A stretch of 64,000 bases of DNA from Ignavibacteriae bacterium HGW-Ignavibacteriae-3. Lineage in GTDB: Bacteria > Bacteroidota > Ignavibacteria > Ignavibacteriales > Melioribacteraceae. Positions 10,900 to 26,614 of this stretch are shown here, piece after piece. Positions within the stretch are counted from its first letter, which is position 1. Every line of letters starts with the position of its first letter. A model generated the notes under the pieces. That model saw nothing but the letters and a program-made list of their open reading frames with translations. It was not told where the DNA came from and ran no database searches. The stretch lies in assembly GCA_002839795.1 (NCBI GenBank), contig PGYS01000002.1:11274-75273 (forward strand), read 5' to 3'. The position numbers and the translations under genes are program-made.

Positions 10900-10917
10900 G
10901 ATTCACATTCCTTTCAG

Positions 10918-11565: not shown

Positions 11566-11625
11566 TTTATTAATTCCGGCTGCAATTATTACAAACCCCC
11601 GCAAACACTTAGGGCTGATTCATCG

Positions 11626-12156
11626 TTAAGAACTGCTGAGTTTTGTAAATTCGGCAAGCAAGTGTCTCCCCCTGGCTTTAATAGCCGGAGCGCCGGAAAT
11701 CATTTGTTTTTCAATTTCATCGCGTACAGTTTTCAGCAGCTTGGCATCCCGCTTGGCAAATTCCGCAAGCGTCTGCATGCAAGACACTTTAACGATTATA
11801 CTATCGGAAGAATTCAGCCAGCGGCTGAGATGAATAAATACTTTTTCTGTTTCTCTTGGGGTTAGCTTAATATATCCGAGTATTTGAGCGATATGCCAGA
11901 TAACTTCTTTCTGATCAAAAGAATTCAGTTTTTTAATTATAACCGTTTTTTTTCTTTGCGCATATTCCGGAAATTTTTTTGCCACTTTTTCAACTGCATC
12001 AGCGCATCTTGCTCGCACAACTTTATCATCATGAAAGATACCCCTAAATACTTCTTCGAATAGATCAGGATCGCTTGTGACAAGAGCAACAACTTCATTT
12101 GATTTTCCGATTGAACGGAGATCGTTTCCCTTCAGCAAATCGTAGATTGTAAGCAT
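11626..12156 (-). CDS. HEAT/ARM-like helical repeat protein (DNA alkylation repair-like fold?)
   Basis: All-helical composition with a weak resemblance to AlkD-like HEAT proteins. It abuts the MOSC gene stop with 0 nt spacing. Confidence 0.35.
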   Translation of the reverse strand: MLTIYDLLKGNDLRSIGKSNEVVALVTSDPDLFEEVFRGIFHDDKVVRARCADAVEKVAKKFPEYAQRKKTVIIKKLNSFDQKEVIWHIAQILGYIKLTPRETEKVFIHLSRWLNSSDSIIVKVSCMQTLAEFAKRDAKLLKTVRDEIEKQMISGAPAIKARGRHLLAEFTKLSSS

Positions 12157-12966
12157 TTACTTTTTCTCAAGTACTTCAATCTCATCACCGACGCGCACAG
12201 TCCCGGTTCCGTCATGAATCAGATTCATTCCAAAATAGGTTTTGTTTCCGACCTTCCTGTATGTGGATAATGTTTTTAATGGCTCTTCATCCCCGTCTGC
12301 ACTATCCTGATCGACCGTAATCGTAGCGCACCGGGAACAGGGTTTTACTCCTTCAAAGGCTATATTCCCGATTTTAAATTTCAACCATGAATCCTCTTCA
12401 TAGGGCTCGCCTCCGGTAAACACAAAATTCGGACGGAAGCGGTTCATCGGGATGCTCTCCTCAAGCCGTGAATTCAAATCATCCAGCGAGGATTGACCGA
12501 TAATAAGAAAAGGAAAGGCATCGGCAAAGCTAACTATTTCATTCTGAGCCGCATATTCTCTGTCCACAAAACGCTGGGAGTCGTCAGGCATAAATACCAG
12601 TCTGCATTTGAAACCCAGGACTTCATTAAGCCATTCATCGGCATACCGCCCTACGGCCAGGGCCCAGACAAGGTCATCCCAGACATTTACAATAGTTATC
12701 TCTGTAAGATTTGAATTAGTTGGAACAACAAGCGGCGAAATATCTTTGGTCTTATGGCTCAAGATCAATTTGTTGTGATTTATTTTTGTTTTCAGGAGTG
12801 CAAGCTGAGGGTGATGTCTCTGAGTTATAAATTTTTCATCTCTATCAACAATCATCCATCTCCGGTCATATTTTAAGCCCCGGTCCGTTACTTCGGCTTC
12901 CTTTAGAGAAATCCCGCCAAGAGATTTAACGGGGTAGATATTGAGTTCGGATAGTTTACATTTCAT
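12157..12966 (-). CDS. MOSC domain protein (YcbX-like: MOSC N-terminal beta-barrel plus MOSC)
   Basis: N-terminus LNIYPVKSLGGISL and the conserved Cys context KPCSRCATITVDQ. Confidence 0.85.
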   Translation of the reverse strand: MKCKLSELNIYPVKSLGGISLKEAEVTDRGLKYDRRWMIVDRDEKFITQRHHPQLALLKTKINHNKLILSHKTKDISPLVVPTNSNLTEITIVNVWDDLVWALAVGRYADEWLNEVLGFKCRLVFMPDDSQRFVDREYAAQNEIVSFADAFPFLIIGQSSLDDLNSRLEESIPMNRFRPNFVFTGGEPYEEDSWLKFKIGNIAFEGVKPCSRCATITVDQDSADGDEEPLKTLSTYRKVGNKTYFGMNLIHDGTGTVRVGDEIEVLEKK

Positions 12967-13182
12967 GATTAATATAGATTATTGTTTTTGAATTCAATAT
13001 TGATGGTGATTTAATTCCGGCGGGATATTCGCTAAGGACTTCAAAAATAGTGCATTTTGATTCTTCGTTGAGTTTCCGTTTACAAAATCCCGATTTCATA
13101 ATTTTTCTTTCGAAAACGACTTTAAGATTTCCCGATTTCCATTATATAAAATATTCCAACTTCAAAACTGCACATTCTTAAG

Positions 13183-15570
13183 TTACTTTTTATTTATGTT
13201 TTGTTCAAAGAGTTTAAATATCCGTTTATATTCATCTGTCCAGCTGCTGGGTTCTTTAAAACCGTGGCTTTCGGCCGGATAAATAGCGAGTTCCCAATTT
13301 TCTTTTCCCAGTTCAATTAATTTTTGAGTAAGCCTGACCGCATCCTGAAAATGAACATTATCATCCAACACACCGTGGCAGATAAGCAGCGCACCTTTCA
13401 ATCCATCGGCATAATAGATTGGCGAACTTCTATGATACGCAATGCTATCCAGAACCGGAATATTCAGAATATTTGACGTATAACCGTGATTGTAGTGCGC
13501 CCAATCTGTAACGGGGCGAAGCGCCGCGCCCGCCGCAAAAACGTCCGGCTCTTTGAACATTGCCATCAATGTAACAAATCCGCCGTAAGAACCTCCGTAT
13601 ATTCCGATCTTTTGCTGATCAACTTCATGGCGTTCAATAAGATATTTAACGCCGTCTACCTGATCCGACAGATCCTTGCCTCCCATATCGCGATAGATAT
13701 CAGTTCTCCATTTTTTTCCGTAGCCGGAACTTGCTCTGTAATCAATATCAAGAACGGTATAGCCCTTATCTGCCAGAAAATTATTGAACATATATTCGCG
13801 ATAATATTCGCTCCACCATTTATGCACATTCTGAAGATATCCCGCTCCGTGAACAAATATCACGGCAGCTTTATTTTTTTTTGAATTTTCCGGTTTATAA
13901 AGACGCGCATAAACGGTTGCCCCGTCCCGAGCTTTAAATGTAACAATCTGCGGATCTCGCCACGGATAGGAATTAAACTCCCGCGATGTTGAATAAGTTA
14001 TCTGTTTCGATCCGGCGCCCGGCTTATTATTCATTACAAATAACTCCCATGGTTTATTCGAATAAGAAAACCGGAGAGCGATTGCAGACTCATCGGGCGA
14101 AAGGGTAACTTCGTTATTGCCGGTCATAGTCGTTATTTTTTCGGCTTTTCCCCCGTCAACGGATATTTTATAAAAATGTCTCTCCCCGGGATGAACTTCG
14201 TTCGAAGTAAAATAGAAATAATTTTTGTCCCCGGATAGCTGGGGATTATACACCTCAAAGTTTCCTTTAGTGATTTGTTTCTTTTCTCCTGTTTTAACAT
14301 TGAGAGTATAAATGTGGGAATAGCCGCTTTCTTCCGATTGAAAATAGATCCGTAAATTATCCCGCAGCCAGCCGGTATTACCGGCTCCCCATCCTATTCC
14401 AGGTCCGCCGATCCACTCTTCATCATGCTGATGATCCAGATTTTTTAATTTCCCGGTAGAATGATCAAGAAGAGCAATCCATCTGTCTTTATTGTCGGCT
14501 GATTTTACAACCATTAAAGCGAAAGCTCCGTCTTCCGAATAAACCGGTCCTGCGTACAGCGCTTCGCGCGATTGCTCTTTTACGGTTGTTTTTTTCGAAG
14601 AGTCCGACTTGATTTTATAGTCATCAAGATATTCCGGCTTCCGGTTAATGCCGTCCAGATCTTTAGTATCAGCAAAATAAACAGTGTCTTTCATTATATC
14701 ATAAATTCCGAATTCAAAAGTAGTCTGCTCTGCACCCACTTTTGTTCTGGAATTTATATCTTCCGTAAACCCGCGTTCCGTAAGATAGTTTGGAACTATT
14801 GTATTCTTTGAATTTTTGGACGGCTTGTCAAGGCGGAAGGTTATAAAGTTTTCATCCGGTGATAGTTGAATATTAGCAACCCTTTTATCTTGAGTATAAA
14901 TTTCCTTTGGCCTTTTGGGCTGCAGTTTCCTGTTTACTATATCTCTCTGGTCCTGGATTTCTTTCCGTTCCCGAAGAACCTCGAATAATTTTAACTCCTC
15001 TTTCTTTAAGTGTTTTTCCTGTTCCGTGGCCGGTTCCTTTGAATCCGGCGGTTTTATACCCGTTCGGAAATCCGTAAGCTGAACAACACTGCCATTTGAT
15101 ATATTCCACGTAAAAAGATTGCCGTTTAATGTATAAACTATTTTCTTTTCGTCCGAAGAAAATCTGGGGCCGGATTCACGGTCATTTGTATTTGTGATTC
15201 TTTTCTGCGCTCCGGTTTTTATATCCAAAAGAAATATATCCCCGTTTTTTTCATAAACCTTTTGTGATCTGTTATTGTTGAATGATCCAAAAGACGAAGG
15301 AAGGCTCTTCTGTTCTTCGGAACTAAGGGGTTTTATAGTTCCGTCCTTTAATGAATAATAAAAGAGTGAATCATTTTTAGCTCCTGTTCTATTCCAGTTA
15401 AAAAAGATTTTAGTTCCATCCTCGCTCCAGTAAACATTCTCGGGCGAAGTTCCCATCCACCTGGAATCACGCATGATATTCTCAATAGACATTTTAAAGT
15501 CCTGCGCCTGAACGGTTTGCAGAACAATCGTACAAAAGAACAGAAGTTTAAGCATGTTTTTTAATTTCAT
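13183..15570 (-). CDS. S9 family serine peptidase (dipeptidyl-peptidase IV / prolyl oligopeptidase-like)
   Basis: Signal peptide and beta-propeller-type N-terminal region. Catalytic motifs are GGSYGG (Ser), HGVLDDNV (Asp) and ESHGF (His). Start moved to the ATG at 15570. Confidence 0.85.
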   Translation of the reverse strand: MKLKNMLKLLFFCTIVLQTVQAQDFKMSIENIMRDSRWMGTSPENVYWSEDGTKIFFNWNRTGAKNDSLFYYSLKDGTIKPLSSEEQKSLPSSFGSFNNNRSQKVYEKNGDIFLLDIKTGAQKRITNTNDRESGPRFSSDEKKIVYTLNGNLFTWNISNGSVVQLTDFRTGIKPPDSKEPATEQEKHLKKEELKLFEVLRERKEIQDQRDIVNRKLQPKRPKEIYTQDKRVANIQLSPDENFITFRLDKPSKNSKNTIVPNYLTERGFTEDINSRTKVGAEQTTFEFGIYDIMKDTVYFADTKDLDGINRKPEYLDDYKIKSDSSKKTTVKEQSREALYAGPVYSEDGAFALMVVKSADNKDRWIALLDHSTGKLKNLDHQHDEEWIGGPGIGWGAGNTGWLRDNLRIYFQSEESGYSHIYTLNVKTGEKKQITKGNFEVYNPQLSGDKNYFYFTSNEVHPGERHFYKISVDGGKAEKITTMTGNNEVTLSPDESAIALRFSYSNKPWELFVMNNKPGAGSKQITYSTSREFNSYPWRDPQIVTFKARDGATVYARLYKPENSKKNKAAVIFVHGAGYLQNVHKWWSEYYREYMFNNFLADKGYTVLDIDYRASSGYGKKWRTDIYRDMGGKDLSDQVDGVKYLIERHEVDQQKIGIYGGSYGGFVTLMAMFKEPDVFAAGAALRPVTDWAHYNHGYTSNILNIPVLDSIAYHRSSPIYYADGLKGALLICHGVLDDNVHFQDAVRLTQKLIELGKENWELAIYPAESHGFKEPSSWTDEYKRIFKLFEQNINKK

Positions 15571-15617: not shown

Positions 15618-16421
15618 TTACTCGATTATTTTCAAATATTTCAAAATATCGCGCGAAGCGCTGCTTCTCAAATCACGCACTTCTTCAAATGTTTCGGCTT
15701 CTACATTAAACGCGAAAACGCAGACGTCCTTTTCCTTTTCTACATAACCAACGAGCCAGCCGATGTAAGCGCCATTTTCCTTCTGTCCGGTCCCCGTCTT
15801 GTATTTTAAAAGCGATTTGGAATATTTTTCTCCGGACATAATATTTTTTACTATATCAATATTCCGTCTTGAGAATGGAAGTGAATATTCATAAAAACGC
15901 TTTAGAAATATTATCTGCTCATCCGCTGAAATTTTAAGAGAATTATCAAGCCAGAACTCATCCGTTTTCTTCCCGATAATTTTATTTCCGTAGTTGAGAT
16001 TTTTTAAGTATTTATTATAATTCCTCTTCCCGACACGCCTGGCTAATTCCTGGTAATAAGGAACAACCGAATATTTAATTGCGGAGGCCAAATTATGATC
16101 CTTATTCCAGTCATTGTTCCAGCGATTAACGCCATCCCATTTAATTACAAAATTCTCGTCCGGAATAACTCCCGTTTCCAGACCAATAAGAGAGTTCGGA
16201 ATTTTAAAAGTTGAGGCGGGAAGAAACCGTTCTGCACAGCGTTTTGAATTGTAACGGAAATATTCATCTGTCTGAAGATCAAGCGAAACGAAAGCCCCGG
16301 TATGCTCTTTTAATATTTTGGCTATTATAGTTGAGTCAGGCGCGGGCTTCCGGGCAATTATCGGACCCGACAAGAAAAAGACCATTAATGCTACGGAGGC
16401 TATTATGAATTTACTTTTCAT
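15618..16421 (-). CDS. Class D (OXA-type) beta-lactamase
   Basis: Signal peptide plus the complete class D motif set in order: STFK, SVV (AIKYSVVP), YGN, FWLDNSLKIS...EQ, KTGTG and WLVGY. Confidence 0.85.
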   Translation of the reverse strand: MKSKFIIASVALMVFFLSGPIIARKPAPDSTIIAKILKEHTGAFVSLDLQTDEYFRYNSKRCAERFLPASTFKIPNSLIGLETGVIPDENFVIKWDGVNRWNNDWNKDHNLASAIKYSVVPYYQELARRVGKRNYNKYLKNLNYGNKIIGKKTDEFWLDNSLKISADEQIIFLKRFYEYSLPFSRRNIDIVKNIMSGEKYSKSLLKYKTGTGQKENGAYIGWLVGYVEKEKDVCVFAFNVEAETFEEVRDLRSSASRDILKYLKIIE

Positions 16422-16433
16422 GCAAGTATTCGA

Positions 16434-16775
16434 TTAATAATCTTTCGCGATAGATTCGTGGGGCAGTAAAAATTCTACCGGCGCCCCGTTATTGATTATA
16501 AGTGCTAACGTTACGCCCGGCGAAGGATAAATGGGTTCTATTAATATTTCCTTTTCCTTTATAGCGTCGTTTAGATCGTCAACTTCAAATGCAACGCGCG
16601 GAATTGTCTTAACAAGTTTAGGCGTGCGGAAATTCTTTTCGAACCTCATCCATTCAATCTTATAAGGACCGGACTCGTAACCGGAAGCATGAACTTTAAA
16701 ATCCTCAAGAAATGTCTCATTGTCCCGTTTTTGATTTGTGGGAATTCCCGGGTGATGATATTTAAGAGTGGCCAA
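16434..16775 (-). CDS. Small hypothetical protein (possibly VOC/glyoxalase fold)
   Basis: 113-aa ORF with no signal peptide, only loosely reminiscent of VOC half-domains. It sits 12 nt upstream of the beta-lactamase start. Confidence 0.35.
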   Translation of the reverse strand: MATLKYHHPGIPTNQKRDNETFLEDFKVHASGYESGPYKIEWMRFEKNFRTPKLVKTIPRVAFEVDDLNDAIKEKEILIEPIYPSPGVTLALIINNGAPVEFLLPHESIAKDY

Positions 16776-16918
16776 ATTATTCTACTTTTTGTTGAGTGTT
16801 ACTTTAAAAAGTATCTTTTTGAGAGACAAAACGCAACGGTACGGGCTGTCTATTCTACTCGCGGGCAGAGAATTTTAAACAGGCGTGGATATTAGATTAT
16901 TATCCGGAAAGTTATTCA

Positions 16919-17770
16919 TTAAATTGAAAATGCCACTCCCAGCGATAACGAAAAAGATCTCTTCAAGCCGTCAACATTTACAGGTCGTTTTTTTAAAGGA
17001 AGGGCGATCTCACCGTTCAGACTGAAGGAATCAGAAAATTTTTTTGAAATCTTTCCAAGAAGATTTACCTGCAGCTGATCGCTTCCATCCAGATCAGCAT
17101 AAAGTGAATTTGAATTGAGAGAAGCAATCACGGAGGAATTCTGAAGTCTCTTTATTATAAGCATTTCAAGGCCAAGATTAATATTATTTGATAATTGTTC
17201 CGAATATCCGGCTTTAAACAGCAGATCATCTCCGCGCTTTAAGCCATTAATTTTATTTGCGCTCCGCCCGCCGCTCACTTGATAACCGAGCCCGACAGAA
17301 TATTTTTCGATGGAATAATCAACACCAAGAAGTATATCGTTTGAGCCTAATCCCGGCTGGTATGGCTGTGGCAGATCATTCACGTTAACTTGTCCGGTTG
17401 CCAGTTTCATTCCTATGGAAAAATTGACTGAAGATTCAGAAGATATTTCAACCGGCTGAGTGATGCCCAGAATTATATCCCCGATACCGTTTACCGAACC
17501 GAGCGGTCCGTCAATAAGATTATACGGAATTGATATGTATAGATTCGTCTCTTCGAATATGCTTATTCTGGAAGAAATAGATATCGAATTGAAATTAAGA
17601 TTGTCATCGCCGCCGCTTTTGCCAAACGAATAATTTACAGAGAGAAGATCATCGTTTTTCTCCGCACCGGGACTTTTGCCCAGGCTGCATATTCCGGCAT
17701 CAGAGCATTGCGCTTCAACAGGAATGTTTATAGCGACCACTATCAGCATTAGTACAAATATTTTTTTCAT
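16919..17770 (-). CDS. Outer-membrane beta-barrel protein (MetA/phenol-degradation-like transporter fold?)
   Basis: Signal peptide MKKIFVLMLIVVAINIPVEAQ, alternating amphipathic strands and a C-terminal aromatic end (GVAFSI). Confidence 0.55.
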   Translation of the reverse strand: MKKIFVLMLIVVAINIPVEAQCSDAGICSLGKSPGAEKNDDLLSVNYSFGKSGGDDNLNFNSISISSRISIFEETNLYISIPYNLIDGPLGSVNGIGDIILGITQPVEISSESSVNFSIGMKLATGQVNVNDLPQPYQPGLGSNDILLGVDYSIEKYSVGLGYQVSGGRSANKINGLKRGDDLLFKAGYSEQLSNNINLGLEMLIIKRLQNSSVIASLNSNSLYADLDGSDQLQVNLLGKISKKFSDSFSLNGEIALPLKKRPVNVDGLKRSFSLSLGVAFSI

Positions 17771-17836
17771 AGAATTAATCCCTAATTCAATTAAAGACGG
17801 TACGTTTTTTTTGCATCATTAAGCAAAGCCCGACAG

Positions 17837-18883
17837 TTATTTCTGAAGTAGCATTTTCTTATAAAAATTCTTGCCCCCGGCGTTTAGAACATAAAAATAA
17901 ACACCGCTGGAAAATTGAGAACCCTGCGTGCCTGCAGGCATGTTGAGAATTGAGAATTGAGAATTATACCTTCCGGCTGACTGAAATTCATTTACAAGAG
18001 TTGCGACCTCTCTTCCGAGCAGATCATAAATCTTTAATGAAACATTTCCGGGAGCGGATAATTGGTAACTTATTACTGTTTCAGGATTAAACGGGTTCGG
18101 ATAATTCTGATAAAGTATATAATCCGCAGGGATATTTTCGGCCTCTTCTTTTATTCCCGTCGCAACCATGTCTTTATAAGAAATATATTCAGACTGAATT
18201 ACTTCTTTGGTTCCGGTCCTCTGGACAAAAACAACTACTCCGAGATTTTCCCTTATCCACGCAGACTTGAGCTGAATCGATGAAGCGATTTTTTGAGAAA
18301 CGGACGTTATATTTTTTCCTCCCGCCGGGGCCGAAATCATTCTCATCACATTTTTATGATTTACAATTCCATTTCTTCCCTGATAATTAACATTTTCAAC
18401 AACTACAAGCTGCAAAACCAGATCGCCTGCGTTGAAGCCGGGTGTTACTGTCATATCCGCATCTATTTTCATGGCATCGGCAGTATGTGTACCTGATAAT
18501 TTAATTTCTAAAGGAGATTTTATTGCAATCCTTGAATCTATTACCGAAGACCATTGGCTGTAATTTCCGGGCGCGGTGCTTCCGTCAAAAAATGACTGCG
18601 GTGTGCTGCTGAATGGTCCGTAAAAACTATTTCTTGAATTCGCATCAGATACATTTGCAAGATTAAGCTGATCATCCGGATAGGGAAAATTCATATGGTA
18701 ATATATCAGCCTCACTCGTCCGGAGTTGCTGTTTAACGTCATGTACGAATCTATTGTGCCGTGCGCCGCCGGACATAATACGCAATGGGAATTAGTCAAC
18801 ACTTCAACAAGAATATTCCTGTTGTAATCCTGAGCAAAAAGGATAAATGGAAATATTAAAAACAGATAAATTGTTTTTTTCAT
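17837..18883 (-). CDS. T9SS-sorted surface protein with thioredoxin-like CxxC N-terminal domain (Omp28-related)
   Basis: Signal peptide, then EVLTNSHCVLCPAAH (CxxC). C-terminal Por secretion tail: NYPNPFNPETVISYQL...GVYFYVLNAGGKNFYKKMLLQK. Confidence 0.65.
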   Translation of the reverse strand: MKKTIYLFLIFPFILFAQDYNRNILVEVLTNSHCVLCPAAHGTIDSYMTLNSNSGRVRLIYYHMNFPYPDDQLNLANVSDANSRNSFYGPFSSTPQSFFDGSTAPGNYSQWSSVIDSRIAIKSPLEIKLSGTHTADAMKIDADMTVTPGFNAGDLVLQLVVVENVNYQGRNGIVNHKNVMRMISAPAGGKNITSVSQKIASSIQLKSAWIRENLGVVVFVQRTGTKEVIQSEYISYKDMVATGIKEEAENIPADYILYQNYPNPFNPETVISYQLSAPGNVSLKIYDLLGREVATLVNEFQSAGRYNSQFSILNMPAGTQGSQFSSGVYFYVLNAGGKNFYKKMLLQK

Positions 18884-18892
18884 TTTGGACTC

Positions 18893-20485
18893 TTAAATAT
18901 TGCTTATAAATGTTACTCTGATTCCGTCAAACGGTTGTATATATCGGCAAACACCGTTGGAGCAGATCTGTCCGCCCCGCTCTCTGCCGTAGGAAATGGA
19001 AAAATTGTGTTCGCCGGAAATACGGTATCCGCCCTCTATTGAGAACCAATCCTTCCTGCCGGAAATTTCATTTTCATTGTTTGTGAATTCATACCGCATG
19101 CCAAAAGTAAATTTTGAAATGAAGTTCCCGGTAAATGCTATTAACTGATTACTAAAGTTGTTCTGGCCGGAATTATAGTTGTCAAAAACGGATTCATGCT
19201 CGTATTGTACTGTTACCGAGTACTCTTGAGAAATACTGTGCTGTAAATAAAAAGGAAAAACTGTCGATCTAATTTTATGCGTTCCGGCATCGCCCGTAAA
19301 ATCGTTGTAAATTGTTTTGATCCTCCGGGCTATTCCGAAATTTACATCCGTCGATTCACTCAGCGAGTGTTCAACTTCCAGAAATCCTTCTCTGAAAGGA
19401 GAGTACCTGTCGTCCAACGAGGGAAGAAAATTATTTGAGCGAACCTCTTTGTCAAACTGAAAATTAGCGCGGTTGAGTTTATAAAAATCGTGTCTGCTTG
19501 ATGCGCTTGCGTTCAGATTTATATTTGTATTCTCTCCCAAAGAATAAAATATTTCAACTTGCAATCCGACCTCATCATTAAAATCAATTTCCTGCAGTGA
19601 CCTGGAAAGGAACAGATAACTATGTTCTTTCATGACAGTCGGCGGATTCTGAAAAGGAAGCATTCTTGTGGACCGCGTAAAGTCATTGCGTTCATACGGA
19701 TTTCTTTCGTCATAGCTGTAATTTTTATAATCAAATGTCAGTCCGCCACGGTCAAAGTTGTAGCCGATTAAGGAGTAAATACCAAATCCTCTTGAAGATT
19801 CCCCCGCTTTTACTCCGGTCCATTTATGGGAATAATCAATTAGCCATCTGAAATTCCCGGTATTTAGAGAGAAATAGAATTCACCGACTTCCGCCTTAAG
19901 CTCGCTGGTAATTTGGGGAAGAGGGATTGTTCCGTTTGCCCTTACAAATGAAACTCCGAATGAAAACATTTTATTCAATTTGTATTCAGTGTTGGCCCCA
20001 AAAAGCAAATATTCCTCCGTTCTCCAAAAATTTGTTGAGTCGGTAAATTCGAGCCATCCCGATAATATTGAGGCCTTTAAATCTCCGATCTCATATTTAG
20101 CTGTAATTCCATTTAGCCAAGTATCATAAGACAATCCCCGGTTTTCAAATAAATTAATTGCGAGACCTTTACCATACAGCTCCGATGAATTTCCAAGTCT
20201 TATTTCAAGATCATCGTTTCTGTAAGCAATAAATTTTCTGCTTATGCCGGTGAACCGTTTTCCAACTTCCGGCGGATCATCGTAAAGTATCCGGGCTCCC
20301 GCAGTAAAATTTGACAGAAATTTAAATTTCACTTCGGTCAAATTCTCGCGATAGACATATGAATTTTTTAAAGAGCCAATTGAACGCTCACCGCTTCCAT
20401 AACGGAATAAATTAGATACCGAAAAATCAGTCTGTGCCGCCATGGTTCCGCTCAATATTATAAAGAGAAATACTTTCAGCGCCAT
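18893..20485 (-). CDS. Porin-like outer-membrane beta-barrel protein (DUF6029-like)
   Basis: Signal peptide MALKVFLFIILSGTMAAQ, Tyr/Gly/Asn-rich alternating strands and a terminal aromatic-rich strand. Its ATG directly abuts the TlpA stop. The family name is from memory. Confidence 0.5.
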   Translation of the reverse strand: MALKVFLFIILSGTMAAQTDFSVSNLFRYGSGERSIGSLKNSYVYRENLTEVKFKFLSNFTAGARILYDDPPEVGKRFTGISRKFIAYRNDDLEIRLGNSSELYGKGLAINLFENRGLSYDTWLNGITAKYEIGDLKASILSGWLEFTDSTNFWRTEEYLLFGANTEYKLNKMFSFGVSFVRANGTIPLPQITSELKAEVGEFYFSLNTGNFRWLIDYSHKWTGVKAGESSRGFGIYSLIGYNFDRGGLTFDYKNYSYDERNPYERNDFTRSTRMLPFQNPPTVMKEHSYLFLSRSLQEIDFNDEVGLQVEIFYSLGENTNINLNASASSRHDFYKLNRANFQFDKEVRSNNFLPSLDDRYSPFREGFLEVEHSLSESTDVNFGIARRIKTIYNDFTGDAGTHKIRSTVFPFYLQHSISQEYSVTVQYEHESVFDNYNSGQNNFSNQLIAFTGNFISKFTFGMRYEFTNNENEISGRKDWFSIEGGYRISGEHNFSISYGRERGGQICSNGVCRYIQPFDGIRVTFISNI

Positions 20486-21004
20486 TTATTTGCCATAAAT
20501 GAGGGTTTTAATCTCTGCTTCGAGCTTGAATTCATCCCCCGGAAGATAGCCGATGTGCCGGGAAACGATGATCCCGTTTTTATCAATCAGAAGCGAGAAG
20601 GGAAGACTTTGGACATTAAACAAGTCTGAATATTCATTATTTGGGTCGAGGCCAATCGGATATTTAATTCCCAACGATTTGATAAATGATTTAACTTTAC
20701 CGCTGCTTCTGGGAGAATCCTGATTAATGCCCAATATACTAAAGCCGTCCGGTGAATATTTCTCATACAGCTCTTTCAGCGCTTTCATTTCCGTACGGCA
20801 CGGCTTGCACCACAATGCCCAAAAGTTTACAAGAACCGGTCCGTTAGAATAAATACTGCTCAGTTTAATTTTTTCGTCATTAATCAAGCGAACGGTAAAG
20901 TCAGTTTTACTCTGAGCAGTAATTTGCATTGTAAATATTATAACGAACAACAAAATTCCCGGACACGTTCGAAATGCTTTTTTTCCGTTTACATCATTCA
21001 ACAC
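20486..21004 (-). CDS. TlpA/ResA-family thiol:disulfide oxidoreductase (periplasmic redoxin)
   Basis: Signal/anchor segment, thioredoxin motif FWALWCKPC, and YPIGLD plus cis-Pro context LPFSLLIDKNG. GTG start overlaps the DoxX stop by 1 nt. Confidence 0.85.
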   Translation of the reverse strand: MLNDVNGKKAFRTCPGILLFVIIFTMQITAQSKTDFTVRLINDEKIKLSSIYSNGPVLVNFWALWCKPCRTEMKALKELYEKYSPDGFSILGINQDSPRSSGKVKSFIKSLGIKYPIGLDPNNEYSDLFNVQSLPFSLLIDKNGIIVSRHIGYLPGDEFKLEAEIKTLIYGK

Positions 21005-21456
21005 TAATTCCTTGACAGATATTTCTGAATAAAATTATCGGCGCTAATTTTTCCCGCTCCGTTAATGACTAAAGTCAATAACATAATAAAATAGTATAAG
21101 GGAATTTCAAATCCATTTTCCGCCGCCTCGAAACCGTTATGAAGATGAACCGTCACGATAGCAACGACCATAGTTATGATCAGAGGAATCGAAATTATGC
21201 GGGTTGCAAATCCAAGCGTCAGAAGAACGACTCCGGCGGCTTCTGCCGAGGCGGCAAGATAAGTATTAAGTAACGGCGCGGGTATTCCCAGCGAGCCGAA
21301 CCATTCGGACACGCCTTCGATATTAGACCACTTAACGGCGGCTGTTGTGTAAAAGCCGTATGCCAGAACAAGACGCATCATTAATAAGGGAATATCCTTA
21401 AGCCCTGTTAAAAGCTCCACAACGAAATTATATTTTTGTACAAGTTTCGCGATCAT
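21004..21456 (-). CDS. DoxX family membrane protein
   Basis: Four hydrophobic helices and LRLVLAYGFY...AGKISAD, typical of DoxX. ATGA overlap with the DUF2063 stop. Confidence 0.8.
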   Translation of the reverse strand: MIAKLVQKYNFVVELLTGLKDIPLLMMRLVLAYGFYTTAAVKWSNIEGVSEWFGSLGIPAPLLNTYLAASAEAAGVVLLTLGFATRIISIPLIITMVVAIVTVHLHNGFEAAENGFEIPLYYFIMLLTLVINGAGKISADNFIQKYLSRN

Positions 21457-22211
21457 ATATAAAATCCCGGAATAAATTTATTAGCCTTCAATTCTTCAAG
21501 GAACGGAAGCGTGTTTTCGAAAAGCGCTTTTTCATTCACGCCGAATACTTGCGCCGCCTCTTTAAGTATTTTAATCAGCGGTGTATTTTCAATTTCAACT
21601 TTTTCTATAAGCCATGAGAAATAAACCGATAAATTCATAAACCTAACTTTTCCGCTTTCTTTTTCTCTAAATAATAATACGTAGTACTCTCCGCGATCAT
21701 TTTCCGTAATTCCTTTTGGATTTTTTAAATGAACGGGGTAATTCAACTGCAAGATTTTGTATTCAGGGTTAACCGCAATGACCTCGCTCAGCCATCCTCC
21801 ATCGGTTTTTGATTCAGGATATGCAATATCCGGCATCATATATATTTCCACCTCTGTCCATTCGAAATTCAGAAGATCCTCTAAAAAAATATATTTTTCT
21901 TTTATTTCAAGGCCGGTCTCTTCCACAAAGCGGTAAAATTCGCTTGGCATTTTCCAAATTGAGGTTGATTGACACTTATAATTCGATAAGAAAGCATCAA
22001 CCACGCCGTACCACTCTTCCTGCGAAAGCAAATCACATGTTAATGGAAACGCCGACTGAAGAGTGTCGTCTATAACGCCATGAATCAGTCTGCGGTAATG
22101 ATGGACACGGTTCTCTGTCAACCCGTCTATCTTCGGCGGATCTCCCGTTCTGCAATAATCTGCGAGCCTGCTCTGTTGTGTGTGTGTGTAGTTATGCAAG
22201 TGAGTGTTCAT
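21453..22211 (-). CDS. DUF2063-family RiPP maturase partner (HvfC/BufC/MbnC-role protein)
   Basis: YRRLIHGVIDDTLQSAFPLT...F...SIWKMPSEFYRFVEE matches my recollection of the DUF2063 N-terminal domain. It always pairs with DUF692. Start moved to the ATG at 22211 (20-nt overlap with the MNIO gene). Confidence 0.75.
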   Translation of the reverse strand: MNTHLHNYTHTQQSRLADYCRTGDPPKIDGLTENRVHHYRRLIHGVIDDTLQSAFPLTCDLLSQEEWYGVVDAFLSNYKCQSTSIWKMPSEFYRFVEETGLEIKEKYIFLEDLLNFEWTEVEIYMMPDIAYPESKTDGGWLSEVIAVNPEYKILQLNYPVHLKNPKGITENDRGEYYVLLFREKESGKVRFMNLSVYFSWLIEKVEIENTPLIKILKEAAQVFGVNEKALFENTLPFLEELKANKFIPGFYI

Positions 22212-23034
22212 AGTCCCACGCCTTTGTACAGATATTTTCAAGTCTGTTTAATTCATATTGAAGTTCATTTAATTCGGGAATGTTGAAATCCCTTTCAAGA
22301 AGAACAGGAACTGTTTTGGGAAGTTTATGAGCGGTAAATTCAAATAGTTCATAAACCGGATCGATAATTGGTTCACCGTGAGTATCTATTATTAAATCCG
22401 GAGCAACCTGCTCGTGACCCGCCATATGAATATATTCAACTTTGTCCAAAGGCAGTTTTTCAATGAATTCTTTTGAATCATAATTATGATTGAAAGCATT
22501 AACATAGATATTGTTTACATCGAGCAACAAATTGCAATCGGCCTCTTTAACTATAGAACTTATAAATTCAACTTCGCTCATTTCCGCCGCAACCGGCGTA
22601 TAATAAGAAACAATTTCGATGGCAATCTTTCTTTCCAGAAAATCCTGAACTGATTTAATACGTTGAGATATATGCTTCACCGCATCCCACCGGAACGGGA
22701 TTGGAAGAAGATCATACAGATGAGCATTATCACATTTAGAATAGCTCAGGTGTTCGGAATAAATCTGAACATTATGTTCGTTGAGGAAATATTTAACCTT
22801 CTTCAGAAAATCCCAGTCAAGTTCATCCGGAGTTCCGATTGAAAGAGAGAGTCCGTGTGTATAAATGGGATACTGCGCGGCAATTTTATTAAAAACTTTT
22901 TTCCAGTAACCGCCGATCTCCATCCAATTCTCCGGCGCGACCTCAAGAAAGGCCGGGGTTAAATCTTTTCCTTCCAGAAATTCTTCAGCAAAATCTTTTC
23001 TGAATCCGATCCCGACATGTTTATTTCTTTCCAT
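22192..23034 (-). CDS. DUF692 / MNIO (multinuclear non-haem iron oxidase; MbnB/HvfB/BufB family)
   Basis: Collinear DUF692 motifs: VGIGFRKDF, LEVAPENW, YPIYTHGLSLSIG, SEHLSY, LYDLLPIPF, LLLDVNNIYVNAFNHNYD, YIHMAGH, IIDTHGEPI and LLERDFNIP. Confidence 0.9.
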   Translation of the reverse strand: MERNKHVGIGFRKDFAEEFLEGKDLTPAFLEVAPENWMEIGGYWKKVFNKIAAQYPIYTHGLSLSIGTPDELDWDFLKKVKYFLNEHNVQIYSEHLSYSKCDNAHLYDLLPIPFRWDAVKHISQRIKSVQDFLERKIAIEIVSYYTPVAAEMSEVEFISSIVKEADCNLLLDVNNIYVNAFNHNYDSKEFIEKLPLDKVEYIHMAGHEQVAPDLIIDTHGEPIIDPVYELFEFTAHKLPKTVPVLLERDFNIPELNELQYELNRLENICTKAWDYEHSLA

Positions 23035-23100
23035 TTCAATTCCTCTTAAGCAAAATCCCGCCTTAGGATTAATCCGCCGGCGGGATTAATTTTGATATTA

Positions 23101-23565
23101 TTATTTCTTCTCTGCCGGTTTGGATTCTTTTTTCTCTTTCATTTCCTTCATCTCTTTCTTATCCATAGATTTGGCGTCTTTCTTTTTTTCGCCGCATTTT
23201 CCTTCTCCGCACTTACCGTCTTTTGCTTTGGAATCCATCGGCTTGGTAGCTTTTGCGTCGTTCATTTTTTTATCGCCGCATTTACCTTCCCCGCACTTTC
23301 CATCTTTAGCTTTTGAATCTTTCGCCTTGGGGTCATCGGCTTTCGGGGATTTGCTATCGCTCTTATTTCCGCATTTCATTTCAAGCGTTCGCTCCGGGGA
23401 TGTATTAAGTAAGGATGCCCTCAGCTCTGCGCCCGAGCCCAAATTGTTAAAATCAAAAAGATTTGCAGCATTTAAAGTGCTTGGGGCGCCGGCGCCGAAA
23501 ATCGCTCCGGCGATAATTGAGCCTGTTACAAGTATGCGTTTTGTGTTTTTATAGTGGTTTTGCAT
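23101..23565 (-). CDS. Secreted Lys-rich precursor peptide with five KCG motifs (HvfA-like RiPP metallophore precursor candidate)
   Basis: Sec-type signal peptide (...GAGAPSTLNA/ANLF). Every Cys sits in K-C-G: MKCGN plus two copies of SKAKDGKCGEGKCG[D/E]KK. It lies immediately upstream of the DUF692/DUF2063 pair on the same strand. Confidence 0.75.
   Translation of the reverse strand: MQNHYKNTKRILVTGSIIAGAIFGAGAPSTLNAANLFDFNNLGSGAELRASLLNTSPERTLEMKCGNKSDSKSPKADDPKAKDSKAKDGKCGEGKCGDKKMNDAKATKPMDSKAKDGKCGEGKCGEKKKDAKSMDKKEMKEMKEKKESKPAEKK
23189..23319 (-). repeat. Imperfect 47-bp direct repeat (period 84 bp) encoding the duplicated DGKCGEGKCG module
   Basis: 23189-23235 tcgccgcattttccttctccgcacttaccgtcttttgctttggaatc versus 23273-23319 tcgccgcatttaccttccccgcactttccatctttagcttttgaatc. 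Confidence 0.8.
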
Positions 23566-23653
23566 GGTAGAACCTCTTATTAAGTGAAGTATTGATAATT
23601 GATTGACACTTATAAAGACGTGGTGTCCGCGATAACCTTACAAGAGGCTGAAA

Positions 23654-23911
23654 TTAATTTTTATCGGCGATGGAATTGATAAGAATGTGCATTTTTTCCA
23701 TTTCGGAATCGGAAAAAGAGTCCCGGGAGTGTAAATTTATTATTTGAAGAGACAGAAATTTCTGCTGTTTGTTAAAAAGCCTGCAGAATTTACAAATTAG
23801 CAGATGAATGAAAAGTTTGATTTTCTCTCCTAAAGGAAGGTTCTTTTCCTCTTTTCGAACAGAAATGAAAGATGCCTCTTCACAGGTGATTAAAATTTTA
23901 GATGATTTCAT
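23654..23911 (-). CDS. Small zinc-finger (HxxxCxxC) anti-sigma factor
   Basis: 85-aa product MKSSKILITCEE...IHLLICKFCRLF carries an H-x3-C-x2-C motif. Its ATG (23911-23909) overlaps the sigma TGA (23910-23908) as ATGA. The track ORF start at 23977 lies inside the sigma gene and is unlikely. Confidence 0.6.
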   Translation of the reverse strand: MKSSKILITCEEASFISVRKEEKNLPLGEKIKLFIHLLICKFCRLFNKQQKFLSLQIINLHSRDSFSDSEMEKMHILINSIADKN

Positions 23912-24477
23912 TTTATAAACCATTTTTCTTCTATACAGCTCCTCAACTGCAGTTTGGAGCGATGAATTATTACCCAATAGTTAGACGAAGTTATCTTTAA
24001 TTCCTTACAGATCTCATGCGAATCTTTTTCATCAAGATATTTCATTGAAAATACGATTCTCATAATCTCGGACAGGCGTTCCATACATTTATTAAGAATC
24101 TCCATAAATTCTTCTGACTCAAGTGTTGAATTATAGTCCACGCCCCAATCCTTTGGGCCCCTGCTTTTAATCCAGTGACTCTCTTCATCAAAAAATCCGC
24201 CTTCATCATTCAAGGTATCAATCTGATCCAATATTGAAGCGGTTTTTTTTCTGTAATGGTCGATTATTTTGTTTTTGAGAATCATATACAGCCAGTTCTT
24301 TTCAGAAATTTCCCCCTTGAACGTTTCAAGATTTTTGAGCGCGGCCAGAAAAGTCTCCTGAACCAGATCTTTTGCGGAATCTTTATCATTAACTCTGATT
24401 ACGGCAAAGCGGAAAAGCGGATCCGCATAAGTTTTAACCCAAAGCTTGGGGTTGAGAATTTTTTTTTCAGTACTCAA
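23908..24477 (-). CDS. ECF-type RNA polymerase sigma-70 family factor
   Basis: Region 2 DLVQETFLAALKNLETFKG...NWLYMILKNKIIDHYRKK and region 4 HEICKELKITSSNYWVIIHRSKLQLRSCIEE. Confidence 0.9.
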   Translation of the reverse strand: MSTEKKILNPKLWVKTYADPLFRFAVIRVNDKDSAKDLVQETFLAALKNLETFKGEISEKNWLYMILKNKIIDHYRKKTASILDQIDTLNDEGGFFDEESHWIKSRGPKDWGVDYNSTLESEEFMEILNKCMERLSEIMRIVFSMKYLDEKDSHEICKELKITSSNYWVIIHRSKLQLRSCIEEKWFIK

Positions 24478-24482
24478 TGCTG

Positions 24483-25244
24483 TTATTTATCCTTAAATGC
24501 CTTAATATACCTTTTCGTGAACTCGCTCAAGACAAGATTACCGCTTATTTCAGCACGCTCTTCAAGAAGTTTATCCCAATTTTCAGTTCCGGCCCAGAAT
24601 ATTTTTTTCATTTGGGCGATCGCTTCCGGATTGCAGGCCGTCAGCTTCTTCACAAGAGCTGAAACCGCTTCATCAAGATCGTGATTATTGGCAAAAACTT
24701 TTGTGAATAAACCATTTTGTTTAGCCCAGAAAGCGTCATGCCATTCCGCATCTATCGACATTGTGATAAAAGCAGTATTCCCGATCTTTCTTTCAACTGC
24801 GGGTCCGACAACAAATGGACCGATTCCCAACATTAGTTCGCTAAGTCTTACAGAGGCGACGCTAGAGGCAAGCGTATAATCAGCGGCGGCGATAATTCCC
24901 ACTCCTCCTCCGACTGCCTTTCCCTGAACTCGCGCGACAATAAATTTAGGACATTTGCGCATTGCATTTATCAACCGGGCAAAACCCATAAAAAATTCTT
25001 TTCCGGTTTTAAAATCCTTTATGCGAAGCAGTTCATCAAATGACGCGCCCGCGCAGAATGTTTTTTCACCTTCGCTTCTTATTACAATTACATGCGCGCG
25101 CTTATCGGTCGCAAAATCATTTATTGCTTCCGTGATTTTTTTGATTGTTGGAGATGGCAGCGAGTTGCTTTTGGGGTGAGAAAATGAAATCGTAGCAATT
25201 CCATTTATCATGCTTGTAGTAACGGTTCCGCTTTTTTCCATATG
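24483..25244 (-). CDS. Enoyl-CoA hydratase/isomerase (crotonase) family protein
   Basis: Crotonase motifs FCAGASFDEL and RVQGKAVGGGVGIIAAADY. Start moved to the ATG at 25244, preceded by AAGGAG with 6-nt spacing. The stop lies 5 nt upstream of the ECF sigma start. Confidence 0.85.
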   Translation of the reverse strand, partial: HMEKSGTVTTSMINGIATISFSHPKSNSLPSPTIKKITEAINDFATDKRAHVIVIRSEGEKTFCAGASFDELLRIKDFKTGKEFFMGFARLINAMRKCPKFIVARVQGKAVGGGVGIIAAADYTLASSVASVRLSELMLGIGPFVVGPAVERKIGNTAFITMSIDAEWHDAFWAKQNGLFTKVFANNHDLDEAVSALVKKLTACNPEAIAQMKKIFWAGTENWDKLLEERAEISGNLVLSEFTKRYIKAFKDK

Positions 25245-25596
25245 AATCTCCTTTTTGTTCATCATTTTCTCAGAGACGCCAAGCATCGACGACAAATAAT
25301 AAAACACACTTAAAAAACAAATTCTCTAAAAAAATTACTAAACAGATTTGGAAAACCAAAGAGAAAAAGAACTATTTATCATTCCGCTAAGTGGATTTCT
25401 GAGCGATCTATGCCATAAAAAAGGAGGGGGATTATTTTAAGCTATAACGCAAGGCGTTATCGGGCCCGCGATCACAATTTTCGTTTATTCCGTAAATTCC
25501 ACTCCGATGACATTGCCTGAAAAAATTATAATTAACATGTTCATTGAGATCCGCGGAGAGTCCGCAGGTGATTAATATTATTTTCCGGGTGAAACA

Positions 25597-26585
25597 TTAT
25601 ACTTTAAATACTTCAAGCAGTCGGTTCTTGAATTGTTCTTCATAAATTTTTCCATAATTGACAGTCTCTATGGCTCGGGGAAGAATTTTAACAAACTTTG
25701 TTTTTTCATTCTCCCAATTTTCCAATATGGATTCCGCAATTGTTGATCCGGTATGGAACTGGTGATTAACCGGATATTTGAAAATCAGATCTTCGTCGGA
25801 CAGTTTTAGCTCGTCTATCTTTACATATTCCGAATTCAAATTTTTCTCAACTTGGGAGCGGTTATAATTGCCGGCAGAACCTCTTCGCTGATTCCCTCAG
25901 CAAAATGCTGCTCGAATTTTACCGAGTGTGGATTTATTTTTTGCTTCGGTCTAAAAATAAATTTCGGTTTTCATTTTTGGCAGTAAAAATAGACAGATCA
26001 ATATTTTTTTCTAAGCTCCGGATCCCGGGTCGCGATTCCAACCGGACATGTATTTAAGTGGCACTGCCTTGCCATGACGCAGCCTACAGATACAAGCGCC
26101 GATGTACCGAAATCGAATTCTTCGGCACCAAGCATAGCCGCAACAACAACATCTCTTCCGCTTTTCAGTCCGCCGTCCACGCGCAAAGTAACCATATTCC
26201 TTAAACTGTTTTCGGTTAAGGTCCTGTGAACTTCAAAGAGACCGAGCTCCCACGGAAGACCGGTGTGCTTCAGAGAACCGAGCGGACTTGCTCCCGTTCC
26301 GCCGTCGTTTCCGCTTATTAATATAATTTCCGCGCCTGCTTTTACGACTCCAGAAGCAATAATTCCTATTCCAGGCTGGGAAACAAGCTTAACACAGATA
26401 TTCGCTCTCGGGTTTACCTGTTTAAGATCATAGATCAGCTGGGCAAGATCTTCTGTACTATATATACCATGGTGAGAGGGAGGCGAAATCAACGGAACGC
26501 CGGGTGTAGTATGCCCGCTGTTTGCGATTGACAATGTAACTTTTTCCCTCGGAAGCTGGCCGCCTTCACCCCGTCTGGCCCCCAC
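25597..26585 (-). pseudogene. gltB: Decayed glutamate synthase large-subunit (gltB-like) relic: FMN-domain fragment plus extreme C-terminal fragment
   Basis: 25998-26585 encodes only GEGGQLP...[24 protein letters not shown]...[10 protein letters not shown]...GLPWELGL...[21 protein letters not shown] then a stop. 25597-25839 encodes the C-terminal tail (HTGSTIAESILENWENEKTKFVKILP). The amidotransferase domain, central domain, first half of the FMN barrel and most of the GXGXG domain are absent. Confidence 0.6.
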
Positions 26586-26614
26586 ACCCGGTCCGAAATT
26601 AGATTTTGTAAGAA

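Follow-up and report, generated by a model that had tools for sequence, protein, structure and literature searches.

The stretch analysed here, 64,000 nucleotides (nt) of Ignavibacteriae bacterium HGW-Ignavibacteriae-3 (GCA_002839795.1, contig PGYS01000002.1, positions 11,274 to 75,273; hereafter the window, whose own numbering is used throughout), carries ten closely packed minus-strand genes between 16919 and 24477. A preliminary description had read the ten as one metallophore-type peptide system, with an added envelope module that could reduce, export or surface-display the product. All ten open reading frames (ORFs) were present at the coordinates claimed, and the claimed junction spacings matched both coordinates and sequence. 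Families were assigned by Pfam and NCBIfam profile searches of each ORF with curated cut-offs. On our reading, to which we give a probability of about 0.78, 21004-24477 is a six-gene hvf operon of known type, switched by an extracytoplasmic function (ECF) sigma factor with a zinc-binding anti-sigma (ZAS) protein and making a copper-binding 5-thiooxazole peptide, and the next four genes are separate from it by descent. The value of this reading is mostly corrective: it replaces a new ten-gene pathway by a standard Hvf/oxazolin-type operon, its usual ECF/ZAS switch and a neighbouring cassette. The genes, predicted promoters and junctions are listed here from the upstream end.

23908..24477, minus strand: ECF sigma factor, 189 amino acids (aa), of the Neisseria sigmaE/Haemophilus RpoE2 kind (Sigma70_r2 and Sigma70_r4_2)
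23980..24011, minus strand: predicted ECF-type promoter in the 3' end of the sigma ORF, TCTGTAAGGAATTAAAGATAACTTCGTCTAAC (28.3 bits by position weight matrix, PWM)
23908-23911, minus strand: sigma stop and anti-sigma start, ATGA overlap
23654..23911, minus strand: small cytoplasmic ZAS anti-sigma, 85 aa, or 89 aa from an alternative ATG at 23923 (antisigmaE, Cys/His motif)
Anti-sigma to precursor, minus strand: 88-nt gap
23613..23644, minus strand: predicted ECF-dependent hvfA promoter, CTTGTAAGGTTATCGCGGACACCACGTCTTTA (PWM 30.6 bits)
23101..23565, minus strand: HvfA-type precursor, 154 aa (NF050137, KCG motifs)
Precursor to oxidase gene, minus strand: 66-nt gap
22192..23034, minus strand: HvfB, multinuclear non-haem iron oxidase (MNIO/DUF692; PF05114, NF003818)
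MNIO and DUF2063 genes, minus strand: 20-nt overlap
21453..22211, minus strand: HvfC, DUF2063-type partner with a recognition element for ribosomally synthesised and post-translationally modified peptides (PF09836 and PF22106)
DUF2063 and DoxX genes, minus strand: ATGA overlap
21004..21456, minus strand: HvfX, DoxX-family membrane protein (PF07681, NF050144)
21004, minus strand: DoxX stop and TlpA GTG, 1-nt overlap
20486..21004, minus strand: TlpA/ResA-like membrane-anchored thiol:disulfide oxidoreductase, WCKPC (AhpC-TSA, Redoxin, Thioredoxin_8)
20485, minus strand: TlpA stop abuts the DUF6029 ATG
18893..20485, minus strand: DUF6029 outer-membrane beta-barrel, 530 aa (PF19494, E 2.4e-39; weak Porin_4)
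DUF6029 gene to the following cargo gene, minus strand: 9-nt gap
17837..18883, minus strand: HBP35-like cargo of the type IX secretion system (T9SS), with a thioredoxin-like CxxC domain, an Omp28-like beta-sandwich and a type A sorting domain (Omp28, Por_Secre_tail)
Cargo gene to 283-aa ORF, minus strand: 66-nt gap
16919..17770, minus strand: beta-barrel outer-membrane channel of the FapF/COG4313 fold, 283 aa (weak Phenol_MetA_deg in Pfam; AlphaFold2 model)

Public gene calls on an identical contig (GCA_017973855.1) use alternative starts for three of these, giving an anti-sigma of 89 aa, a TlpA of 171 aa and a DUF6029 protein of 516 aa. The 530-aa start of the last supplies its signal peptide.

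Core enzymes of the Hvf type

The ORF at 22192-23034, earlier proposed to be a DUF692 protein, matched PF05114 (MbnB_TglH_ChrH in Pfam) at E 1.4e-96 and passed the NCBIfam HvfB equivalog NF003818 with 384.3 bits against a cut-off of 360, confirming it as an MNIO. The NCBIfam models for BufB, MbnB, ChrH and ApyH all stayed under their own cut-offs. The protein aligned at E 3e-71 with Protein Data Bank (PDB) entry 3BWW, the Histophilus somni MNIO that is 72% identical to Haemophilus HvfB (10.64898/2026.07.17.739211), and the motifs HGLSLS, SEHLS (SxHLS), DVNNIYVNA, HMAGH (H(M/I)AGH), DTHGE and LERDF were identical or nearly identical between the two. By motif, its Asn and Asp-x-His presumably correspond to the HvfB site-3 residues N175, D242 and H244 (10.64898/2026.07.17.739211).

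Profile searches likewise placed 21453-22211 in DUF2063, as had been claimed, with PF09836 at 50.7 bits (cut-off 27.2), and added the C-terminal domain PF22106 (NGO1945_C) at 31.5 bits (cut-off 27). The membrane protein at 21004-21456 was confirmed as DoxX and proved to be of HvfX type (PF07681, E 8e-18; NF050144 HvfX family, 125.6 bits against 80). NCBIfam would name four of the core genes automatically. Two related assignments were ruled out: bufferin BufABC, with NF050167 (BufB) at 270 against 310 and a precursor without a DUF2282 match, and methanobactin MbnABC, with TIGR04159 at 47.9 against 325 and no MbnC or MbnA matches.

A conserved six-gene unit

A genome scan with the window HvfB yielded 80 species-level loci, the best of 195 matches, in which gene presence was scored by tblastn of the window proteins. 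All 80 belong to Ignavibacteriota or Bacteroidota (Chitinophaga, Pedobacter, Flavobacteriales, Sunxiuqinia and others), with HvfB identities of 67-89%. HvfB and HvfC were present in all 80 loci, HvfA in 74 and DoxX in 56. The HvfC gene follows hvfB in 80/80; hvfA, which lies 66 nt upstream of hvfB in the window, holds the same position in 74/80; and a sigma gene stands upstream of hvfA in 64 of the 75 loci with enough upstream sequence. For the six core genes, conservation of the neighbourhood in relatives was strong.

In the published MNIO landscape, precursors of this kind make up a 'Buf_EGKCG/oxazolin' class; it counts about 2,000 proteins, which belong to Pseudomonadota for the most part, and its core gene set is precursor, MNIO, DUF2063 and DoxX (PMC12452194). 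The same paper leaves sigma genes for the EGKCG class unmentioned (PMC12452194). Our loci show that this operon type is widespread in Ignavibacteriota and Bacteroidota, and they make the Fibrobacteres-Chlorobi-Bacteroidetes (FCB) group a source of untapped natural variants with 3-9 Cys and a lineage-specific leader-like segment.

The precursor

The secreted precursor with KCG motifs was also confirmed, passing the NCBIfam model NF050137 KCGExKCG_twice with 20.9 against a cut-off of 19.5. Its Sec-type signal peptide is followed by an FCB-specific LGSGAELR segment, the five KCG cysteines and a Lys/Glu-rich tail. Read by eye from the sequence, the signal has a basic n-region, the hydrophobic stretch ILVTGSIIAGAIFGAGAP and a cleavage-type site ...LNA-A. 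All five Cys lie within KCG, as two DGKCGEGKCG units and one MKCGN.

The 75 homologous FCB precursors contain 3-9 Cys (median 5). Of their 386 cysteines, 377 (98%) are followed by Gly, and in all 75 an LGSGxE[LV]R-like segment separates the signal peptide from the first Cys. In the window precursor this segment falls within residues ~33-62, with the pattern F-x-[YF]-x-x-LGSGxE[LV]R, a region outside the reach of the Haemophilus-based HvfA model. The segment may be an HvfC recognition element, and it would be retained on the exported peptide. By its motifs, the precursor is a member of the EGKCG class and not an equivalog of Haemophilus HvfA.

Switch and promoters

The two genes at the head of the operon were confirmed as an ECF sigma and a ZAS anti-sigma. 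The sigma factor consists of regions 2 and 4 only (Pfam Sigma70_r2 and Sigma70_r4_2), and the anti-sigma carries the motif C10-x25-H36-x3-C40-x2-C43. A small HxxxCxxC ORF lies between sigma and hvfA in 66/66 loci that have both genes, and in each of these 66 a further Cys stands 26-29 residues ahead of the ZAS His.

Upstream of hvfA we found TGTAAGG-N15-CGTCT at fixed spacing in nearly all loci. In the window this promoter reads GTAAGGTTA-N12-CGTCTTTA, matching the Neisseria sigmaE consensus GTMAGBWTT-N12-13-CGTCTAAH (PMC2893595). A PWM was built from 54 distinct instances and scanned over the 64-kb window and 20 shuffles. Only two strong sites were found in the window, the hvfA promoter at the top with 30.6 bits and a second site at 28.3 bits; the shuffle maximum was 19. 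The second site is internal to the sigma gene, ~60-70 nt upstream of the anti-sigma ATG. Among 68 loci the sigma-internal site was present in 55 and the hvfA site, at 18 bits or more, in 52, and the PWM found an ECF-type site within 400 nt upstream of sigma in 0/68. We infer that this sigma would recognise and use both predicted promoters. The lack of a motif upstream of sigma therefore predicts negative feedback without positive autoregulation.

Codon usage bears on how the internal site is kept. The Lys codon in the sigma stretch I-C-K-E-L-x-I-T-S-S-N is AAG in almost every sigma gene listed. Six sigma genes have Gln in place of Lys, encoded by CAG in five, and three of these CAG loci (L047, L062 and L075) show the TGTCAGG variant at the hvfA promoter too. 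The residue four codons before the sigma 'NY', which gives the -10 'CG', is S, T, A or P depending on the locus, yet the codon keeps the form NCG and is followed by TCN. Such variation in the protein under a constant NCG, with Lys as AAG nearly throughout, rules out that the motif is merely a by-product of protein conservation; the codon pattern argues that the internal promoter is maintained at the DNA level. It would be a clean example of a promoter overlapping an ORF, and one that predicts negative-only ECF feedback.

Envelope cassette

The four genes that follow doxX encode envelope proteins. For the TlpA protein the top NCBIfam model is ResA, under its cut-off. In the DUF6029 barrel, C508 and C513 are invariant in 34 homologues and form the CSNGVC motif near the C-terminus, before the last strand; the only link for this family in the literature is an HHpred likeness to Wzi-like polysaccharide porins (PMC9603273). 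The HBP35-like protein scored 43.5 against a cut-off of 23 with the T9SS model TIGR04183, and its C34 and C37 are invariant in 43 homologues. For this protein and the 283-aa barrel, AlphaFold2 models were built on 43-sequence alignments. The model of the HBP35-like protein (predicted local distance difference test, pLDDT, 87) had Porphyromonas gingivalis HBP35, 5Y1A, as its top PDB match in Foldseek (E 1e-16; template modelling score, TM, 0.58/0.64). As a T9SS cargo, HBP35 is attached to the cell surface, and it has a thioredoxin activity that depends on its CxxC (PMC2907840). The two proteins share an N-terminal thioredoxin-like CxxC domain, a beta-sandwich and a T9SS C-terminal domain, but their sequence identity is just 16%, and the window type is always paired with TlpA and DUF6029 genes.

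This pairing was also seen away from hvf. In 4/4 loci with DUF6029 homologues of 44-57% identity, a TlpA gene lies upstream of DUF6029 and is matched by one or two HBP35-like genes on the downstream side, with no Hvf. The three closest homologues (59-66%; L091-L093) show the fused ten-gene arrangement with the same flanking synteny. A metagenome scan with the DUF6029 profile gave 80 loci at 23-66% identity, for which counts are limited to loci with enough flanking sequence. A TlpA-like gene lies directly upstream of DUF6029 in 61/62 loci, and an HBP35-like gene lies beside it in 53/65, including 29/29 at 40% identity or above. HvfB occurred near DUF6029 in only 2/45 loci, one of them the L093 contig and the other L115. 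We conclude that TlpA, DUF6029 and the HBP35-like protein form an independently conserved and widespread envelope cassette of Ignavibacteriota and Bacteroidota (L004-L007, L094-L173). The cassette gives DUF6029 a concrete genomic context, unlike the published polysaccharide-porin idea.

In L115 (Ga0233420_10000629, 4877-13483) the cassette and a complete sigma-to-doxX hvf operon lie tail-to-tail, ~1.1 kb apart, and a 27%-identical barrel gene precedes TlpA on its upstream side. Being convergent, the two modules can have no transcript in common there.

Searches by exact pattern and PWM found no ECF-type promoter before TlpA, DUF6029, the HBP35-like gene or the barrel in the window, in the other fused loci or in four stand-alone cassettes. 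The cassette is therefore not an independent member of the regulon.

Each cassette protein has an invariant Cys pair: WCxPC in TlpA, CSNGVC in DUF6029 and CxxC in the HBP35-like protein. Through these pairs a thiol relay from periplasm to surface is conceivable.

The 283-aa barrel

The AlphaFold2 model of the last ORF (pLDDT 81) had the FapF structures 5O65 and 5O68 as its top PDB matches (E 6e-11, TM 0.62-0.65) and also matched the COG4313 channel Pput2725 (4RL8) with TM 0.63. The identity to FapF and COG4313 channels is ~12%, and the barrel gene has neither fap genes close by nor conserved neighbours. Unlike them, the window barrel has an invariant, family-specific N-terminus, QCSDAGxCS.

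This segment directly follows the predicted signal-peptide cleavage site and is modelled at pLDDT <50. It could serve as a mobile plug or form a disulphide loop.

No link of the barrel to Hvf or to the cassette was seen elsewhere: homologues were solitary, in unrelated surroundings, in 3/3 contexts. The barrel joins the cassette only in the fused sub-clade, and its inclusion in the system by the preliminary description did not hold, the gene standing alone elsewhere.

Juxtaposition of the two modules

Of 67 other loci with 3 kb or more of downstream sequence, one (L010) has all four envelope genes downstream of hvf, and the remaining 66 have none of them. The fused arrangement is found in the window, in L010 (the same locus as L092) and in the metagenome contigs L091 and L093, all within one Ignavibacteriota sub-clade. 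With the cassette at 1/67 Hvf loci and Hvf near 2/45 DUF6029 loci, the envelope module could not be upheld as a conserved part of the system.

In the nearest relatives without the cassette (L009, L011 and L015), doxX runs directly into the window's own downstream genes, a 113-aa ORF and an OXA-like gene. The four envelope genes therefore behave as an insertion or deletion. In a neighbour-joining tree of sigma, HvfB and HvfC, the fused loci (the window, L093, L091 and L010/L092) were interspersed with the cassette-less L009, L013 and L014. This indicates, from the sequences compared, that the cassette is a presence/absence polymorphism within the sub-clade. In the window the TlpA gene begins right at the doxX stop, and in the other fused loci 25-45 nt after doxX; the cassette-less L013 has a hairpin terminator ~65 nt after doxX.

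We found no shared redox, metal or export theme among genes downstream of hvf elsewhere. They are lineage-specific and include a polyprenyl synthase, a TonB-dependent receptor, hydrolases, a radical SAM protein, a MATE protein, a K+ channel and a phosphotriesterase.

Genomic setting

The ten genes belong to a series of 29 minus-strand ORFs with no interruption (10918-47237), and of the 50 window ORFs that reach 150 aa, 41 are on the minus strand. Only 5 nt separate the end of the next gene upstream, for an enoyl-CoA hydratase, from the start of sigma. Because tight same-strand packing is common throughout this region, a ten-gene operon cannot be defined by spacing alone.

Rfam gave no match within 16000-25500 at E values of 0.1 or less, so the gaps hold no known riboswitch or small RNA. 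A generic sigma-70 promoter and intrinsic terminator scan of 16300-24900, which we judge uninformative for FCB promoters, returned chance-level counts (27 against 22.5 and 8 against 8.1, respectively).

Just downstream of the ten genes, 15618-16421 on the minus strand encodes a 267-aa secreted protein with Transpeptidase and Beta-lactamase2 matches (class D/OXA-like). This gene is syntenic with the hvf region in the relatives L009, L011, L015 and L093. On the other side, 25597-32233 (minus strand) holds an 1872-aa ORF with an aminotransferase class I/II domain, followed by short ORFs matching Glu_synthase (195 aa) and GXGXG (80 aa). The short ORFs look like pieces of a glutamate-synthase-like gene, split or decayed.

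Proposed mechanism

The course of events set out here draws sigma release from a thiol-sensitive ZAS, thiooxazole formation, Sec export and copper binding by analogy from the literature on homologues. In the unstressed cell the 85-aa zinc-binding anti-sigma would hold the ECF sigma. Thiol oxidation of the hypochlorous acid (HOCl) or peroxide type, or a thiophilic metal, would break the C-x25-H-x3-C-x2-C site and free the sigma, which would then fire two GTAAGG-N15-CGTC promoters. The one in the 88-nt gap would drive hvfA-B-C-X and the sigma-internal one the anti-sigma gene, with none before sigma itself. In the cytoplasm, HvfB, as a mixed-valent diiron oxidase, and HvfC would convert the KCG-motif Cys of HvfA to 5-thiooxazoles. 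The Sec signal peptide would carry the product to the periplasm, where Cu would be buffered.

For the downstream genes, read-through from the hvf promoters is the simplest expectation, because no ECF promoter precedes the cassette and TlpA lies at or near the doxX stop. In the window the doxX/tlpA junction leaves no room for a promoter or terminator, and cassette and barrel are probably read through together. Co-transcription of the cassette is plausible and a functional interplay with hvf conceivable; the read-through would be a lineage-specific regulatory hitch-hike, not a dedicated module for reduction, export or display.

Evidence against and alternative explanations

Several observations weigh against a known-type hvf operon with a separately descended neighbour. 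Four of its proteins fall below curated thresholds: HvfC scores 115.8 bits against 142 with the NCBIfam equivalog NF050145, although the alignment is full length (12-247 of 252); the precursor reaches 27.4 bits against 95 with the full-length HvfA equivalog NF050188, aligning only over residues 63-107; the top NCBIfam model of the sigma, TIGR02943, gives 153.5 bits, under its cut-off of 162.2; and the anti-sigma matches NCBIfam antisigmaE at E 1e-10, with 41 against 50. The orthology of these four to the Haemophilus proteins is drawn from architecture, not from a curated threshold. Compared with Haemophilus HvfA, the precursor has the conserved LGSGxE[LV]R segment in addition and is without the N-terminal Cys pair. 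The 80 loci, taken as the best of 195 matches to the window protein, are biased towards close relatives, and the neighbour-joining tree behind the gain/loss argument is crude. Finally, at least four lineages whose proteins are only 55-66% identical retain the fused arrangement, with doxX and tlpA separated by 45 nt or less. Such persistence exceeds what is expected of a neutral accident and could reflect selection for co-expression.

This last point leads to the alternative that survives best, which we regard as possible but doubtful. Fusion to the end of hvf may have put the cassette, with the barrel, under the ECF/ZAS switch, so that thiol or metal stress would co-induce an envelope thiol-reductase arm. 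Such an arm would be a functional analogue of the sigmaE/RpoE2-controlled periplasmic Trx-MsrAB, acting on envelope proteins generally and not on HvfA. Consistent with it are the start of TlpA at the doxX stop in the window and 25-43 nt after it in L091-L093, the absence of a terminator-like hairpin between the genes on the minus strand, where the cassette-less L013 has one, and the retention just described. The Neisseria and Haemophilus regulons, moreover, include the periplasmic methionine sulfoxide reductase MsrAB (trx-msrAB for Neisseria) (PMC7907618). However, the cassette has no ECF promoter of its own in the loci searched and hence is no regulon member in other genomes, the linkage is lost or was never present in L009, L013 and L014, and the modules are convergent in L115. 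The flanking genes (enoyl-CoA hydratase, 113-aa ORF and OXA-like gene) are syntenic too, so that persistence may be general synteny, and an internal promoter within doxX is possible.

A second alternative concerns the peptide itself: its primary role could be defence against oxidants (HOCl or disulphide stress), the thiooxazole- and Lys-rich molecule acting as a sacrificial or redox buffer in the periplasm with an RsrA-type thiol sensor as the switch. The anti-sigma has the RsrA/MseR Cys geometry, HOCl induces the Haemophilus hvf/doxX genes in an RpoE2-dependent manner, and DoxX homologues are tied to thiol and oxidative stress. We nevertheless consider this role unlikely as the primary one, since mature oxazolin and bufferins bind copper, bufferins improve growth under Cu stress, and NCBIfam calls HvfX 'Cu-binding'. 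Oxidant defence and metal buffering are not mutually exclusive.

More speculative is a combination, in our estimate an improbable one, in which the switch would, in this sub-clade, drive by read-through from hvfX both the copper-binding thiooxazole peptide and a thiol relay from TlpA through DUF6029 to the HBP35-like surface thioredoxin, with a FapF-like channel. If true, the relay would be an outer-membrane-spanning redox chain co-induced with the metallophore and possibly servicing it.

The integrated ten-gene pathway, in which TlpA would keep or restore the precursor thiols, one of the two barrels would export the modified peptide through the outer membrane and the T9SS CxxC protein would display or handle it on the cell surface, fares worst. 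It could draw on the contiguity of the genes in the window and four related contigs, on the fold that the 283-aa barrel shares with FapF, an outer-membrane channel for unfolded polypeptides, on the invariant Cys pairs in all four envelope proteins, and on the reduction of copper-site cysteines by TlpA proteins in Bradyrhizobium. We regard it as very unlikely, since 66/67 other Hvf loci have none of the four genes, 43/45 DUF6029 cassettes lack Hvf, the barrel homologues are solitary, the Hvf and bufferin systems characterised so far do without a module of this kind and their product acts in the periplasm (PMC11252979, PMC12452194), and modification is cytoplasmic, before Sec export, making a periplasmic reductase unnecessary for it.

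Within the reading of 21004-24477 as a known-type hvf operon beside a cassette of separate descent, the items that we regard as modestly new are the FCB spread of the operon with its leader-like segment, the sigma-nested promoter, and the TlpA-DUF6029-HBP35-like cassette.

Comparison with known systems

The ECF/ZAS coupling is not unusual, having already been described from experiments in Neisseria (PMC2893595) and Haemophilus (PMC7907618). The preliminary statement that no characterised MNIO system is known from T9SS-bearing FCB organisms leaves the ChrH protein of Chryseobacterium (NCBIfam model NF050165) out of account.

Bufferins, exemplified by Caulobacter sigmaF-NrsF and Cupriavidus gig, resemble the window in their MNIO/DUF2063/DoxX core, Sec-exported Cys precursor and ECF control (PMC12452194, PMC3511200). 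They chelate copper via 5-thiooxazole, which by analogy is proposed for the window peptide as well. The window differs in its BufB score (270 against 310), in a precursor of EGKCG type and not DUF2282 (Buf1) or Buf_6/12Cys (Buf2), and in a soluble ZAS anti-sigma, where Caulobacter has the membrane protein NrsF.

Closer is Haemophilus. In H. influenzae the ECF sigma RpoE2, held by the 67-aa ZAS protein HrsE, is needed for HOCl induction of a doxX cluster, and the RsrA/MseR-type ZAS pairing is termed 'ECF group 13' (PMC7907618). The gene families of this cluster match the four-gene hvfX-A-B-C operon characterised in nontypeable H. influenzae, where HvfB and HvfC turn six Cys in the AEGKCGEGKCG repeats of HvfA into copper-binding heterocycles (PMC11252979). 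The HvfB product has since been reassigned as 5-thiooxazole, not oxazolone/thioamide, made with a mixed-valent diiron cofactor (10.64898/2026.07.17.739211). Haemophilus hvfABCX and the window share a Sec precursor with GKCGEGKCG repeats, the MNIO HvfB, the DUF2063 protein HvfC with its peptide recognition element, and the DoxX protein HvfX; in each, the ECF sigma has a small cytoplasmic ZAS protein as its anti-sigma, and the window HvfB and HvfX pass NCBIfam models built on the Haemophilus system. The arrangement differs: sigma and anti-sigma form a separate locus beside msrAB in Haemophilus but lie directly upstream in the window, and doxX is first in the Haemophilus operon but last here. The window precursor has two units and a single KCG (five Cys), whereas the Haemophilus one has three units and a disulphide pair; the extra LGSGxE[LV]R and the scores of HvfC and full-length HvfA under Haemophilus-based equivalog cut-offs set the two further apart.

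Another counterpart of the six-gene unit is the Neisseria rpoE operon, NMB2140-NMB2145 in N. meningitidis. There sigmaE and its ZAS anti-sigma MseR, which requires Cys4, Cys34 and Cys37, are encoded in one operon together with a DoxX-like and three hypothetical proteins (PMC2893595). It and the window have the same six families (DoxX, small secreted protein, DUF692, DUF2063, ECF sigma and ZAS anti-sigma). The Cys-x25-H-x3-C-x2-C geometry of MseR (PMC2893595) is identical to that of the window anti-sigma, the Pfam domain matching the window HvfC, NGO1945_C, is named for a gonococcal protein, and the Neisseria promoter consensus matches GTAAGGTTA-N12-CGTCTTTA. In Neisseria, however, the structural genes come first and sigma and anti-sigma last, under one autoregulated promoter, whereas the window has two predicted promoters, one within the sigma ORF, and no motif upstream of sigma. 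Taken together, the promoter motif has been kept from Neisseria to Ignavibacteriota, and the FCB group has a second copy of it embedded in sigma.

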